Source: Eledone cirrhosa (taxonomy: Eukaryota). From it: a stretch of DNA of 64,000 nt. The position numbers and the translations under genes are program-made. The stretch lies in the NCBI GenBank assembly GCA_964016885.1, contig OZ024749.1:16926001-16990000 (forward strand), read 5' to 3'. The notes below the pieces were generated by a model. The model was not told the DNA's origin. It made no database searches and saw only the letters and a list, made by a program, of their open reading frames with translations. Shown here one piece after another: positions 1,239-54,030 of this stretch; positions within the stretch are counted from its first letter, which is position 1; each line of letters opens with the position of its first letter.

Positions 1239-1590
1239 CATGGAACTCTTTTAACCATCTTTTGCTCTTATATATTATATATACTCCAGTCCTACAAACT
1301 GTAGAGTGCTTCTTATCCGATTTCTGCATTGCTTTATTGTACTACAATAAAACTCACCTCCTACATATACATATATATATATATATATATATATATATAT
1401 ATATATATATATATATATATATATATACATATATATATACATATATATATATATATATACATATATATATACATATATATATACATATATATATACATAT
1501 ATATATACATTTATATATACATATATATATATATACATATATATATATATATAAGGATTAAAATACTGGAGCGTGTTGGAGTTAAACATC

Positions 1591-2482
1591 CATTTCGGTT
1601 GGTGTTGTTATGGAAGTACCACCAAGGATCTCCACTGCCCTCCTTACTCAGATGTGCATTGAAGTCCCCCAAAACAAGCAGGATATTGTGTGCCTGAGTG
1701 GTGTTGACAGCTCTACACACCTCCTCATGGAATTCTTCCGCATTCACATCACTGTCCCCCTCGGTTGGACTATAGGCTGAGATGACTGTCAGTCTTGGGT
1801 TTCCATTGAAGGTCACCCTCAACACTCGCGGGGAGATAGGCATTATTTCCCTCACCAAGTGGGTTTTTACACTGAACACAAAACCCACTCCTCCTACTGC
1901 AGCATTTGTTGTGTTCTTCACTGCCGATGTAGTGATGAGCTGGCTCTTCTTCCCGATCATCACACTCCTCACGGGCTCATCGTGTAGAATCCTGTGTTCT
2001 TGGATCGCAAGTATCTGTATACCACTCTCCTCGAACAGATGTCCCAACTCCTCTCTCTTCTCCAGCGTCCGAATAGTCCTCACATTCAAAGTGCCCATTT
2101 TGATGGCTCTTCTGCAGGACAAAACTGCATTCTTTATATTTGTCTCAGAGACAGCTGATCCATCATCCACTGGCCCTCTCTGTGGATCTAAGCCAGCAGA
2201 GTCATAACGACCAGGCTGCTCCTTGACAGTGTAATTAGGGGCTCTAACCCTAGTGCTGTTAGATCGACTCTCCATATTTCTTTTCAATGGCTGACAATAC
2301 CACTCGAATAAGGTAGTTATTTAACCCATAAATGGAGCCCTAACAGGTACTACCACCCCGGGCCAGGGCAGACCTGGGAGTCACGACAATTAAGGGGTAA
2401 CTCCACATTCCCCACATCTCCTGAACTCCCGAACTGGAGCCTTGCCACTGGATGTAGTTTAATGTCATACCCAGGACATCAA
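1591..2482 (-). mobile_element. RTE/RTEX-clade LINE 5' fragment (5'UTR + APE endonuclease)
   Basis: ORF 1511-2287 has GTLNVRT, IQEHR, GGVGF, SAYSPT and LGDFNAH APE motifs; truncated after NTNRNG. Confidence 0.85.
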
Positions 2483-2613
2483 TACATATATATATATATA
2501 TATATATATATATATATATATATATATATACGTTATTCCGGGTTGAATCGGAGGTAACCACAGTAAGTAAGGTACTCAATACATAGCAGAGTATAACAGT
2601 TTTAATATAGAAG

Positions 2614-2664
2614 AGATTCTACAGGACTAGAACTGTTTCATTCATTAGAAATCATCAGGAATCT
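2614..2664 (-). ncRNA. Type I hammerhead ribozyme in PLE-2 inverted pLTR
   Basis: agattc-CTGATGA-tttctaatgaat-GAAA-cag...ctg-TA-gaatct on the minus strand. Confidence 0.88.
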
Positions 2665-3660
2665 GGGTATCAAAAAATAAATATGGTATTTATAGGTCTC
2701 TACAAGTGGTAGGAGAGGGTGGGGAGTGAGATGGGTGCAGGTCATTGGTTGATAGAAAAGGGAATTCATTAAAAGCTAATTCTACGAAGCTATAGTTTAT
2801 TTTTATTTTTATTTATATTTATTTATGTTTTTAGAGTAACAAAGGCAGACAGAATTCTATAAACAGGTTCCGGATGGCATACCATTCCTTGTCAATAAGT
2901 TTCTCTTAAGCTAACAGATGTCTATAAAGTCAGTGGGGGGTCAGTCATGGTCGATAGAATTAAAGAAAAGGGAGATTCTTCAAAAGCTAAAGTCATTAAG
3001 GTTCTACTAAGTGACAAAGGTCTAGAGAATTCTGCAGACAGATTCAAAATACTGAGTGCATATCTTACTATTATCTTCGAACTTCTCTTAAACTAATCAA
3101 CTATATGCCAAAAATCAACAGACACATTCACAAAAAAACAAAAAAACAAAAAAACAAAAAGACACATACTCACTCACACACTTACGCGCAACCATAAACA
3201 CACACACAAACACATATACACACATAAAAACACACACACATATATAAAAAATATATAAATATATATAAATATAAATATATATTCATGTACACACACATAC
3301 ATACACACATACATACATACATACATATACAATACATATACACATATACATATACATATATATATATATATATATATATATATATATACACATACATACA
3401 CATATACATATACACAGATACACACACACACACACACACATATATATATATATATATATATATATATATATATGTAGATAAATCTACCAAGAGTTTACGG
3501 TAGTGTCCAATCCGTATGAAGAACTCAATGTATTCCGGATATCATGGAAGAAGAGATGTAATGAAAAATCACTTTCGGTGAAAGATAAACGGTATACAGA
3601 GTCAAGATAAAATATTAAACAAATAATGAATAAACAATTCCTTATATTAAACAAAAAAAA

Positions 3661-3814
3661 TTCATTATTTAACGATCGTTTCTAGGATATATATGTGTTA
3701 GAATTGGTATGCATATTCAACAGATCTATGTACAAAATTATATAAAATTATACAAATTATCAAGATTAAATATACATACCAACACATATATACGCCGTCT
3801 TCAGAAATAATGAA
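3661..3814 (-). ncRNA. Type I hammerhead ribozyme with ~120-nt extended stem II (PLE-1 3' pLTR)
   Basis: ttcattattt-CTGAAGA-long hairpin (tatatatgtgtt/aacacatatata, ggtatg/catacc)-GAAA-cgatcg-TT-aaataatgaa; perfect 10-bp stem I. Confidence 0.8.
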
Positions 3815-52479: not shown

Positions 52480-52865
52480 CATCATCACCATCATTTTACG
52501 TCCGCTTTTCCCTGCTTGCAAGGGTGGGATAGGAACTGATTCTGGCTTGATTTCTACAGCTGGATGCCCTTCCTAACACCAACCTTATTTACAGTGTGTG
52601 CTGGGTGCTTTTTTGCCGTGGCACCTCCACGACCACTTTACAGTGAGTGCTGGGTGCTTTTCTGCTGTAGCACCTTCACGACCACTTTACAGTGGAATGA
52701 TAGGGACCCCAGTCTTATCATCTCATTTCTACAGCTGAGTAAACTGGAGCAATGTGAAATAAAGTGTCTTGCTCAAGGAAACAACACATCACCTGGTCTG
52801 AGAATTGAACTCACAATCTTTCGATTGCAAGGCCAATGCTCTAACCACTAAGCCATGTGCTTCCA
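52480..52865 (-). mobile_element. SINE family A (paralogue of 30291-30675)
   Basis: Reverse-complement match. Confidence 0.85.
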
Positions 52866-53544
52866 TGTATATATGTATATATATATATACATAAAAGATA
52901 AAAGAAAACATGGTATGTTCACAGACAATCTATGAAGAACCGTAGACTGGAGAACTCAACAACGCTGGCCAATAAAATATGGCAGCTTAAGGACACAAAC
53001 CAGGAATATGGGAATAGCTGGTAGAAATTTAATTATCGCCCACCTCCACATCTTGTGTATATAACATAGCTATTTGTTTCCCTATATATGCCTGTGTTTA
53101 CCGTTCCTTCATAAACCAGTTCCTAGATAATGATCACAACACCGTCATCCTCAAATACCACATCCACCAGATGCTGAAGAATGCACACATCATGTTAAAA
53201 GCTGGTCAAATCCAATCAGATCAAGTCCTCATGAAGAGTCTGTTGCACAAGGTAAATAATATGTGTGTGTGTGTATATATGTGTGTGTGTGTGTGTGTGT
53301 GTGTGTGTCTGTGTGTATATATGTGTGTGTATATATATATGTGTGTATGTATGTCTGTGTATATATGTGTGTGTGTATGTGTGTGTCTGTGTGTATATAT
53401 ATATGTGTGTGGATATATAAGTGTGTGTGTGTAGATATATATATGTGTGTGTATATATGTGTGTGTGTATATATATATATGTGTGTGTATATATATATAT
53501 ATATGATATTAAATAAATGGAAACTATATTTATAAAACCATATT

Positions 53545-53610
53545 TATTTCGTTATATATATTTCAGGGATATCATATTAACAATATGTTATGCCGTCTTC
53601 AGACAAAATA
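53545..53610 (-). ncRNA. Type I hammerhead ribozyme
   Basis: tattttgt-CTGAAGA-cggcataacatattg...atccct-GAAA-tatata-TA-acgaaata. Confidence 0.82.
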
Positions 53611-53760
53611 CAATATAAACAGTCTTATAAATAAATAGATACGACATACCTTTCAATCACCTTGCATTTGGGAGGTTGATTTGGTACCAAATCAACCTCC
53701 CAAATGCAAGGTGATTGAAAGGTATGTCGTATCTATTTATTTATAAGACTGTTTATATTG

Positions 53761-53826
53761 TATTTTGTCTGAAGACGGCATAACATATTGTTAATATGAT
53801 ATCCCTGAAATATATATAACGAAATA
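53761..53826 (+). ncRNA. Type I hammerhead ribozyme (mirror arm)
   Basis: Same motif read on the plus strand. Confidence 0.82.
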
Positions 53827-54030
53827 AATATGGTTTTATAAATATAGTTTCCATTTATTTAATATCATAAATATACTCGAAATACTTGTTGAGTGCTTTT
53901 ATATCAGTTATAAATATTTACTCGTTGTTAACCCAACAATTTAAATATAACTTTCCATATATATATATATATATGTGTGTGTGTGTGTGTGTGTGTATAT
54001 ATATAGTTAGAGAGGTGTGTATATAATATA

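Follow-up and report, generated by a model that had tools for sequence, protein, structure and literature searches.

Among the closest described systems is a Poseidon-type Penelope-like element (PLE) of Anolis, PAc, for which two internal starts of reverse transcription were observed in vitro; they are located in a stem-loop region 3' of the hammerhead and bound the tail (Frangieh et al. 2024, PMC11167929). The elements described here resemble PAc in that two ends lie 3' of the hammerhead, the tail is one-sided, the target is AT-rich and the context is a stem-loop. In PAc, however, the stem-loop is AC-rich and lies inside the ORF, the tail is 30-40 nt long, no conserved or duplicated motif was defined, and the start sites are not homologous to the target (PMC11167929). 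In the present elements the 5' leader holds two copies of a motif that is found across the clade, with a tail of 55-85 nt or more and ends 2-7 nt before a copy.

The protein motifs that define the Hydra clade of PLEs are listed in section 11 of Craig et al. 2021 (PMC8557442). Both ORFs of the window, i.e., of the whole stretch of 64,000 nucleotides analysed (Eledone cirrhosa, contig OZ024749.1, positions 16,926,001 to 16,990,000), match this definition with RWR/RWK, DKT, CxCx5C, CxxC and CxH motifs and without CCHH, and the same set is present in the consensus of A1. Each is a single ORF with RT and nuclease and with YIG at the C-terminus. A canonical hammerhead in the pseudo-LTR and insertion into (TA)n were both found for the window carriers; as far as the clade is described in PMC8557442, its members share these features, the protein motifs and tailed inverted pairs. 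Judged by protein motifs, hammerhead and (TA)n targeting, the carriers are Hydra-clade PLEs. The Naiad label attached to the RT in an earlier note on this DNA is withdrawn, as Naiad identity needs an N-terminal GIY-YIG, a CxC linker, DKA and the absence of a canonical hammerhead, whereas the window shows a C-terminal nuclease, DKT and hammerheads. A search of the published consensi of Naiad and Chlamys for 8-mers from the 3' half of the motif gave 11 places, all internal and shown without hairpin context. The motif is present in consensi published for coral and sea cucumber elements.

The PLE-2 protein is compact and intact, with about 710 aa. Its Pfam GIY-YIG match is weak (643-669, E 0.015, below cut-off). 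The fold is closest to TERT; the fold search gave TERT and other RTs but no PLE, and 0 solved structures matched the PLE protein by sequence. Residues R55, R57, R502 and R504 are 91-100% conserved in 107 proteins. A single-protein metagenome scan and an alignment scan of viral contigs yielded no relatives.

Hairpin copies and their carriers in the window

Nine hairpins had been reported in the earlier note, and all of their five-base arms are present at the positions and on the strands given there. By BLASTN the carriers are unrelated, as claimed: matches at E<1e-4 occur only among copies of the same family. The loops have lengths of 17, 11, 14, 13, 13, 19, 15, 12 and 22 nt and end in TA, TT or TG, as described, but each is in fact an inner stem followed by a 3' two-base bulge U-N. 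The consensus reads GCUC-Y[variable hairpin]R-U-N-GAGC-ACU, that is, a stem of four pairs, the bulge and the inner stem. The inner part measures 8-110 nt across copies, reaching 72-110 nt in the long interiors at 10567-10647, 10392-10509 and 41437-41538. Covariation of the outer pairs holds for the first, which is G-C or A-U. The second, a fifth pair, is rejected: 60 of 64 related copies have A directly 3' of the stem, independent of the 5' base (T23, C18, A16 and G5 of 62 copies). The copies at 41331, 41437, 46565 and 45878 lack this pair and were missed earlier for that reason. An invariant CTC/GAG core is contradicted by GCAC/GTGC in L080 copy 1 and L087 copy 2; further deviant forms are the copepod consensus Hydra-1_Crog and M2 of PLE-2. 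The bulge, the second copy in each element and the fixed relation to two types of element end had all been overlooked.

Table 1. Motif copies (M1, first copy; M2, second copy), hammerhead cores and ORFs in the window.
Feature	Position	Strand	Remarks
M1 of ORF-less fold-back element A (946-1363)	1283..1307	+	short end at left arm; long end ~80 nt past M1 start
M1 in inverted arm of PLE-2 insertion (2537-3282)	2574..2592	-	arm carries long end
PLE-1 ORF, Hydra clade (by sequence)	7921..10362	-	nested in (TA)n tract of PLE-2 inverted arm
M2 of PLE-1, 110-nt interior	10392..10509	-	3' copy (3478-4455) ends 5 nt before M2
M1 of PLE-1, 73-nt interior	10567..10647	-	copy at 3523-3602
Hammerhead core of PLE-1, very long stem II	10724..10849	-	read by eye
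M1, second copy of element A (14173-14573)	14226..14250	-	opposite arm ends 4 nt before motif position
Type I hammerhead core (CTGATGA...GAAA), PLE-2 pseudo-LTR	16540..16562	+	
M1 of PLE-2	16606..16624	+	end of family copies at 16600, 5 nt upstream of M1
Tentative degenerate M2 of PLE-2	16677..16689	+	GCAC..GTGC, without inner stem; bulge not U
PLE-2 ORF, RT + C-terminal GIY-YIG, Hydra clade (by sequence)	16715..18856	+	
3' pseudo-LTR of PLE-2 with hammerhead	20989..21669	+	stops at short end; motif not copied
M1 of element D	21882..21903	-	downstream of hammerhead core 21970-21994
M1, tail-only copy of D (23228-23326)	23234..23255	+	between microsatellites
M1 of element E	23771..23791	-	downstream of hammerhead core 23843-23891
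M1 of element F (hammerhead core 29037-29060)	29237..29257	+	inverted duplicate 54283-54303
Motif of fold-back I (39889-40185)	40190..40219	+	left arm ends 4 nt before motif
M1 of 615-nt tandem unit (41232-42655)	41331..41356	+	repeats 41946-41971, 42561-42586; without readable hammerhead
M2 of 615-nt unit, 94-nt interior	41437..41538	+	repeat 42052-42153; array ends 3 nt before M2
M2 of element K	45878..45893	-	
M1 of ORF-less element K (44478-46040)	45934..45968	-	5' arm in either of two registers (45960 or 45968)
Hammerhead core, 468-nt tandem unit G (46042-47018)	46259..46304	+	repeat 46727-46772
M1 of unit G	46486..46508	+	repeat near 46954-46976
M2 of unit G	46565..46583	+	also 46097-46115; array ends 4 nt before M2
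M1 of fold-back H (53510-53954; hammerhead core 53769-53810)	53875..53894	+	

A position downstream of a hammerhead, as previously stated for these hairpins, applies with exceptions. The copy at 23233 is a tail-only piece, and it is its sister at 21882-21903 that has the hammerhead. The hammerhead upstream of 1282 reads CAAA for GAAA, a microsatellite stands between 29236 and its hammerhead, and the unit with 45933 begins at the cut site and has its hammerhead core at the opposite end. Fold-back I at 40189 carries the motif without a readable hammerhead, as had been noted; on its right side, (TA)n begins about 8 nt beyond the motif. Fold-back H has a G-G mismatch at the closing pair, and its left arm ends 5 nt before M1.

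The motif is present, as reported, both in the autonomous PLE-2 and in ORF-less elements (A, G, K and the 615-nt array); units G and K and the array keep both copies. Animal non-LTR retrozymes are described as similar ORF-less tandem units with type I hammerheads from PLE pseudo-LTRs (PMC7229834; bioRxiv 10.64898/2026.07.22.740005), and no shared recognition signal is named in the portions of these two texts that were available. Retrozyme-like features here are units G and K and 77-nt go-back joints.

The loose pattern of the earlier note matched 50 times, against 22 ± 7 in 30 shuffles (max 37), in 50,208 unmasked bases on both strands, with a nearly self-complementary pattern and repeats counted repeatedly. 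Within the window alone this is only a modest enrichment. The refined pattern gave 18 matches (shuffle mean 2.0, max 6). A covariance model, R1, trained on 11 rows of which two were window copies, gave 20 window matches at E<=10, 16 of them at motif sites on the expected strand; it missed the G copies and the long-loop copies, except for 3' parts of the latter. Rfam covariance models had 0 matches at E<=0.5 at 6 motif loci. Over the window, the 150 Rfam matches listed of 283 were miRNA-precursor models below their gathering scores, mostly on microsatellites. Several window copies (A, K M1 and the long-loop M2s) fold weakly in context, with stem probabilities of 0.10-0.25.

A duplicated hairpin with covarying pairs

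Conservation was counted in related elements from other organisms. The earlier pattern lies within the first 100 nt after the hammerhead cut site in 26/32 families and upstream of the hammerhead in 0/26; shuffles gave a mean of 2.0 (max 6), and ORF tiles 86/1242. This enrichment over upstream and shuffled controls agrees with what the earlier note had led one to expect. In its refined form the motif follows the hammerhead 26 times in sense and twice in antisense. As the 26 families have the start of M1 at 36-53 nt from the cut site, and the Poseidon hammerhead is protein-assisted (PMC11167929), the hairpin might be an auxiliary hammerhead domain that tunes self-cleavage. This is most improbable: M2 lies far from the ribozyme, the distance in unit G is about 170 nt, and the 615-nt array and fold-back I carry the motif without a readable hammerhead.

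M2 precedes the AUG in 41 of the 49 ORF starts with enough upstream DNA, and M1 and M2 are both present in 31 of these (ORF tiles: M2 6/661, both 0/661). The spacing from M1 to M2 has a median of 63.5 (range 55-83), and from the end of M2 to the SxKNIP anchor the median is 49 nt. Long loops shift M2 to 103-133 nt from M1, and long ends are still found near M2. The location of M2 shortly before the AUG would suit a signal for translation, or translational feedback, of an uncapped, hammerhead-cut mRNA, and self-cleaving ribozymes can drive cap-independent translation, as stated in PMC13725137. As the main role this is very unlikely, since ORF-less units keep both copies and the tracking of ends by the motif is left unexplained; it could be a second role of the hairpins.

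In 64 non-redundant related copies, pairing holds only in the register with a 3' two-base bulge: 63/64, 45/60 and 36/41, against shuffle means of 48.9, 23.9 and 16.6 (0/5000 shuffles each). The first bulge base is U in 64/64. The G-C pair is present in 64/64, for which copies were selected, and the A-U pair and the preceding pair in 63/64 each. The closing pair of the inner stem covaries (C-G 41, U-A 22, other 1), and in M1 it changed between C-G and U-A at least four times on the starred branches of a quick tree of 35 RTs and six times overall. Covariation within the hairpin, which the earlier note had ascribed to the outer pairs, is thereby shown for the inner stem. By a program's count, pairing was 96% in an ungapped 11-row set and 21-62% in slid controls. 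Copies were anchored on stem ends or taken in equal-length sets, because MAFFT left the 5' arm unaligned on 50 copies of mixed length. Pairing of the M1 5' arm with the M2 3' arm was considered and is disfavoured, with a mean probability of 0.04 versus 0.77 and 0.63 for the own stems in 36 leaders.

Element ends and proposed starts of reverse transcription

For most mapped copies in genomes, the end falls 2-7 nt upstream of one of the two motif copies. Among near-identical relative copies, 11 of 14 mapped in 7 families break 2-4 nt before one of the two (P ~2e-6, even with ends confined to TA/AT positions). A second mapping placed 14/21 ends within 0-6 nt of the motif, and 8/11 window junctions lie 3-7 nt before it by exact match. 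Genomic ends thus keep a fixed distance to the motif, as expected of a signal for RT initiation. Since they sit just before copy 1 or copy 2, the Penelope 'tail' consists of hairpin 1 plus the spacer. PLE-2 family copies also end at 16669, 7 nt before the tentative M2. Reads aligned to PLE-2 pass into (TA)n at two places, behind 16600 (428 and 542 reads) and behind 16665/16669 (358; 424+382 reads; 31 and 2 contigs); these are RAD-seq reads, and the counts may stem from few loci. Contig depth drops about 1000-fold past the PLE-2 long end. Misfitting ends are those of L019, in mid-spacer, of L027 and L006, inside the hammerhead, and of fold-back I on its right side. Element D fits poorly as well: its long end is about 93 nt from M1, and a lone GCTC stands 17 nt in front of that end.

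A and T predominate among the eight bases that precede the stem, and TA bases are common to junctions and target. The ends could therefore be set solely by UA microhomology with (TA)n, the hairpins serving RNP assembly, stability or export. We regard this as improbable, because motif-adjacent TA/AT positions are 18% of such leader positions yet take 11/14 ends, and because some junctions share only one TA (L014, L094). Microhomology with the target helps to fix ends, since UA-rich bases always precede the motif.

Alternatively, the motif may be read in DNA, with the GIY-YIG nuclease recognising it in cDNA, in a double-stranded intermediate or in a resident copy used as target, and cutting at the upstream TA so that both ends are trimmed. 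Craig et al. ascribe the tail to nuclease resolution of an intermediate (PMC8557442), and the D. virilis nuclease is said to have needed the tail for recognition (as cited in PMC11167929). Some 5' ends and microsatellite insertions lie just before M1 or M2 (L015, L028, L030, L052, L088), and inner-stem G-U versus A-C counts are too few to tell the strand. Cutting of DNA is nevertheless considered unlikely. The (TA)n tracts joined by the ends are unrelated, which leaves no need for a motif in the target; base pairing is conserved despite variable sequence and loops of 8-110 nt, as would fit a single strand that folds; and internal starts on RNA were seen in vitro for a Poseidon element (PMC11167929).

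The best reading of the conservation elsewhere, the covariation and the end mapping is a cis-acting RNA signal for the RT, as the earlier note proposed for a Naiad enzyme and as is retained here for a Hydra-type one. We consider it fairly probable that docking takes place at the RNA level, two sites fixing two internal starts of reverse transcription. The RT-endonuclease would bind the bulge, possibly with conserved arginines forming an arginine sandwich as in HIV TAR and 7SK, and would nick the (TA)n DNA; the nicked end would anneal to the UA bases immediately upstream of the hairpin, from where it would be extended. The short end would come from a start before copy 1 and the long end from one before copy 2; in either case the hairpin responsible for the end is left uncopied. 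From two starts an insertion would result as an inverted pair with a one-sided tail of hairpin 1 and spacer. Copy 2 would then be absent from every long 3' end, so new long ends would need a tandem RNA, or an RNA cut by the hammerhead and circularised; such a template is somewhat favoured. One protein molecule per hairpin is conceivable, with a less than even chance. Against docking, the heavily used long end of PLE-2 adjoins only a degenerate M2 (U-A for A-U).

Structured RNAs that recruit an RT and are common to non-autonomous partners include the 3' stem-loops of LINEs and SINEs, the R2 3' UTR and hepadnavirus epsilon. These signals sit in the copied region or prime within a bulge, whereas the Hydra hairpin comes as one of a pair, lies 3' of the proposed start and is not copied.

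TAR-like layout and significance

In TAR, according to Pham et al. 2018 (PMC6189040), base A22 is followed by bulged U23, which forms a triple with A27-U38, and arginines contact G26 and G28; this layout recurs in 7SK ASM3, where the bulge is 2 nt long. The motif is alike in its purine pair, bulged U, G-C and A-U pairs and further G-C, and by sequence all triple and arginine-contact bases named there for TAR have matches in its consensus. The arginine-sandwich layout, a bulged pyrimidine after a Watson-Crick pair and then G-C and A-U, is likewise present. It differs from TAR and 7SK in being circularly permuted, with the loop closing the other helix, in the conserved single-stranded ACU that follows, in occurring twice and in a retroelement, and in a few copies that flip the A-U pair. 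The likeness was noticed post hoc. The deviations in PLE-2 M2, L080, L087 and Hydra-1_Crog would be poorly tolerated by a triple-base pocket. By this analogy, a TAR-like arginine pocket at the bulge has nearly an even chance. Taken as a whole, a scheme of two TAR-like hairpins with one RT-nuclease each, making cDNA on opposite (TA)n strands from hammerhead-made circular or tandem RNA and so giving rise to inverted repeat, tail, pseudo-LTR and retrozyme parasites, must be called doubtful.

No description of a paired hairpin motif was found in the literature searched, subscription papers and Repbase reports being outside its scope. The main text of PMC8557442, as available, contains 'hairpin' 0 and 'stem-loop' 0 times, the hammerhead being the only RNA element described; the motif is present in the consensi of that same study. 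GAGCACT in one Penelope paper lies in an unrelated primer.

PLEs are the closest relatives of telomerase RT, and the hairpin pair bears on two questions about them, the choice of template and the long-puzzling one-sided tail. The pair likely marks where the RT docks and copying starts, which would explain the one-sided tail. The prior in vitro study found two internal starts and no defined signal, and here both ends can be predicted within a few bases from a clade-wide motif about 20 nt in length. It provides a rule for annotating element boundaries and recognising non-autonomous partners, it would be what enables Hydra-type retrozymes to make use of the RT, and it bears on the role of the hammerhead through the circular or tandem template. 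It also makes the PLE mechanism open to a simple mutational experiment. If the pocket is TAR-like, a retrotransposon would have made independent use of the TAR mode of RNA-protein recognition.

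Carriers and position of the motif

The window sequence is animal DNA, AT-rich and crowded with (TA)n tracts. Two Penelope-like elements with an ORF, PLE-1 and PLE-2, are present, and both ORFs contain the RWR/RWK, DKT, CxCx5C, CxxC and CxH motifs, the same as in the Hydra clade list in the available part of Craig et al. (PMC8557442). There, Naiads are described with an N-terminal nuclease and without canonical hammerheads. The earlier note had seen in the window hairpins a cis-acting signal for a Naiad RT; this label was abandoned, since the window ORFs have a C-terminal nuclease and Hydra-clade motifs. 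The predicted fold of the carrier protein (pLDDT 92.5) is nearest to telomerase RT.

All nine CTC-loop-GAG hairpins described in that note were found, with the same positions, loop lengths and loop ends. Location downstream of a hammerhead was borne out for some of them, but several of the statements hold only with qualification. The pattern is loose (50 matches in the window vs 22 ± 7 in shuffles), so that the window by itself is insufficient to settle the case.

Related loci were retrieved with a 107-protein alignment as query: 78 metagenome loci, from the best 80 of 419 confirmed stretches, and 18 further loci (L079-L096) in bacterial genome assemblies, seven of them in one MAG. The Hydra-clade PLEs of these 18 are probably animal host DNA misbinned into bacterial assemblies. 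In the related loci GCTC...GAGCACT recurs 3' of the hammerhead. Of 43 hammerhead families, 32 were testable (five are too short, six reach (TA)n before +75). The predicted positional enrichment was observed: the CTC-loop-GAG pattern of the earlier note lies within 100 nt past the cut site in 26 of the 32 (shuffles average 2.0), and upstream of the hammerhead in 0 of 26. The six misses include the variant copies L080 and L087, and L038, a likely false hammerhead within an ORF. In one family (L006, L009, L017, L027, L028, L063) the hammerhead and the first motif copy are separated by an additional small hairpin that ends in GAGTAG.

Six published Hydra consensi were inspected by eye. The first motif copy (M1) follows the hammerhead in Hydra-2_Amil and Hydra-2_Ajap; Hydra-1_Ajap begins two bases before M1 and contains both M1 and the second copy, M2; the copies of Hydra-1_Crog are deviant; Hydra-1_Amil and Hydra-1_Obim end 30-45 nt past the cut site. 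In Naiad and Chlamys consensi, 8-mers of the motif 3'-half occur 11 times, all at inner positions without hairpin context.

Structure and covariation

The motif, GCUC-Y(variable)R-U-N-GAGC-ACU, was characterized on 64 non-redundant copies out of 105. The interior pairs in one register only, which leaves two bases on its 3' side as a bulge; the loop endings TT/TA/TG reported earlier are real, but represent this bulge. The first three inner pairs are formed in 63/64, 45/60 and 36/41 copies, counts that none of 5000 shuffles attained. All 64 copies have U as the first bulged base, and the closing pair of the inner stem covaries, being C-G in 41, U-A in 22 and other in 1, with at least four switches on a quick RT tree of 35 rows; neither feature was demanded by the motif search. 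A second outer pair was rejected: the bases after the stem are nearly always A, C and T (25, 24 and 25 of 26 copies in a flank-blind search). In window copies the outer pair is A-U or G-C, and in three of them the interior extends to 73-110 nt. The interiors of both PLE-1 motifs, like stem II of the PLE-1 hammerhead, are long.

Two copies and the element ends

Upstream of the ORF, M2 is present at 41/49 ORF starts (190 nt of upstream DNA each) vs 6/661 ORF tiles, and M1 and M2 together at 31/49 vs 0/661, spaced 55-83 nt apart. Missing copies are partly elements starting between M1 and M2, or variant copies. In the window both copies occur in PLE-1, in a 615-nt tandem array and in the ORF-less units K and G, the latter a tandem; in PLE-2, M1 is accompanied by a degenerate candidate M2. 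No clear motif was found in the 622-nt tandem unit.

Most mapped ends lie just before M1 (short end) or just before M2 (long end). Copies that stop past the hammerhead were compared by alignment with leaders that read through, giving 33 pairs, of which 6 were left out as contig ends and 13 as <94% identical. In 11 of the 14 kept (7 families) the break lies 2-4 nt upstream of M1 or M2; the exceptions are L012 (-12; -3 in BLAST mapping), L019 and L027. Positions this close to a motif copy account for 6.8% of the leader, or 18% if TA/AT positions alone are counted (P about 2e-6, rows of one family not being independent). BLAST mapping placed 14/21 ends 0-6 nt before the motif. Exact matching puts eight of 11 window junctions 3-7 nt upstream of a motif; of the others, one is ambiguous in a TA run and two require a mismatch.

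Reads from other samples pass from PLE-2 into (TA)n at two places: 16600, which is 5 nt short of M1, and 16665/16669, 7 nt short of the candidate M2 (two raw-read runs; the long end additionally in two contig sets). Immediately beyond the long end the summed depth of contigs drops from 870,000 to 1,100; the PLE-2 read counts are from RAD-seq, with few loci possible as source.

One end of each kind per insertion was found for the ORF-less element A, its second copy, the fold-back H and the PLE-2 insertion. The same layout, an inverted pair with the tail on one side, is drawn in the available part of Craig et al. (PMC8557442). The Penelope tail in the Hydra clade is M1 plus spacer. The tail-only insertion of element D looks like the product of copying that began at the long start and went no further than the short start, and the joint at the RTE-like ORF may reflect a switch of template, D RNA being left for the RNA of another retroelement.

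Features of the window
Feature	Position	Strand	Remarks
RTE-like ORF joint	1511-2320, with 1555-1597	minus	N-terminal part of endonuclease ORF abuts last 43 nt of D tail, then (TA)n
PLE-2 insertion	2537-21669		PLE-1 nested in inverted arm
PLE-1 ORF	7921-10362	minus	RT, C-terminal GIY-YIG nuclease
PLE-1 hammerhead	10724-10849	minus	stem II about 115 nt
PLE-2 mini-units (reads)	16520-16597		joints going back 75-78 nt give tandem units, hammerhead to short end only; depth about 1000-fold above 5' part of PLE-2 ORF
PLE-2 ORF	16715-18856	plus	RT, C-terminal GIY-YIG nuclease
PLE-2 3' region	18857-21669		2.8 kb, largely compound (TA)/(TG) microsatellite, carried along in PLE-2 copies; target for PLE-1 and A
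D, tail only	23228-23326		about 10 nt before M1 to long end
Large inverted duplication	28931-31088, 52068-54603		96-98% identical, flanks 21-kb region
LINE-like element	31191-35565		broken; in 21-kb region
622-nt tandem unit	43090-43971	minus	degenerate hammerhead, GTAA replacing GAAA; ends in (TA)n about 35 nt further on
Unit K	44478-46040	minus	ORF-less, 1.4 kb; about own hammerhead cut site to short end; head to head with G
SINE-like repeat	44524-44719		in K
C2H2 zinc-finger ORFs	55746-57299	minus	in tandem

Proposed role in reverse transcription

A Poseidon-type PLE protein begins reverse transcription internally, at two sites that lie 3' of the element's hammerhead and bound the tail (PMC11167929). 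The simplest reading for the Hydra clade, considered probable from the sequence comparisons, is that each RT start would be fixed by one hairpin just 3' of it, M1 setting one start and M2 the other. Inserted DNA does not include the hairpin that fixes its end. This points to action on the template; the alternative, that a longer cDNA is made and then trimmed to give the ends, is judged improbable. Counted against hairpin-fixed starts are some window copies that are predicted to fold weakly, the elements A, D, E, F and H (M1 seen, M2 unseen), the degenerate M2 at the busy long end of PLE-2, and ends off the rule in L006, L019, L027 and fold-back I, the L006 and L027 copies ending within the hammerhead.

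Because M2 is missing from long 3' ends, an RNA with M2 after the ORF would be needed to make new ones. The template could be tandem or circular RNA, as Cervera and De la Pena propose for hammerhead-cut PLE RNA in the available part of PMC4209133. The invariant bases match those of the TAR/7SK arginine sandwich as given in the available part of PMC6189040 (paired purine, bulged U, G-C, A-U, G-C), and arginines 55, 57, 502 and 504 of the carrier protein are conserved. Similar arginine recognition of the motif may be supposed; given the deviant copies, it would not be absolute.

Earlier publications already cover the hammerheads of PLEs, the tail, internal initiation and retrozymes. Literature searches turned up no account of the motif, of its occurring twice or of how it relates to element ends, and Rfam gave no match in six loci (E<=0.5). 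The motif is real, clade-wide and apparently unpublished, a putative RNA signal for RT recruitment or initiation.
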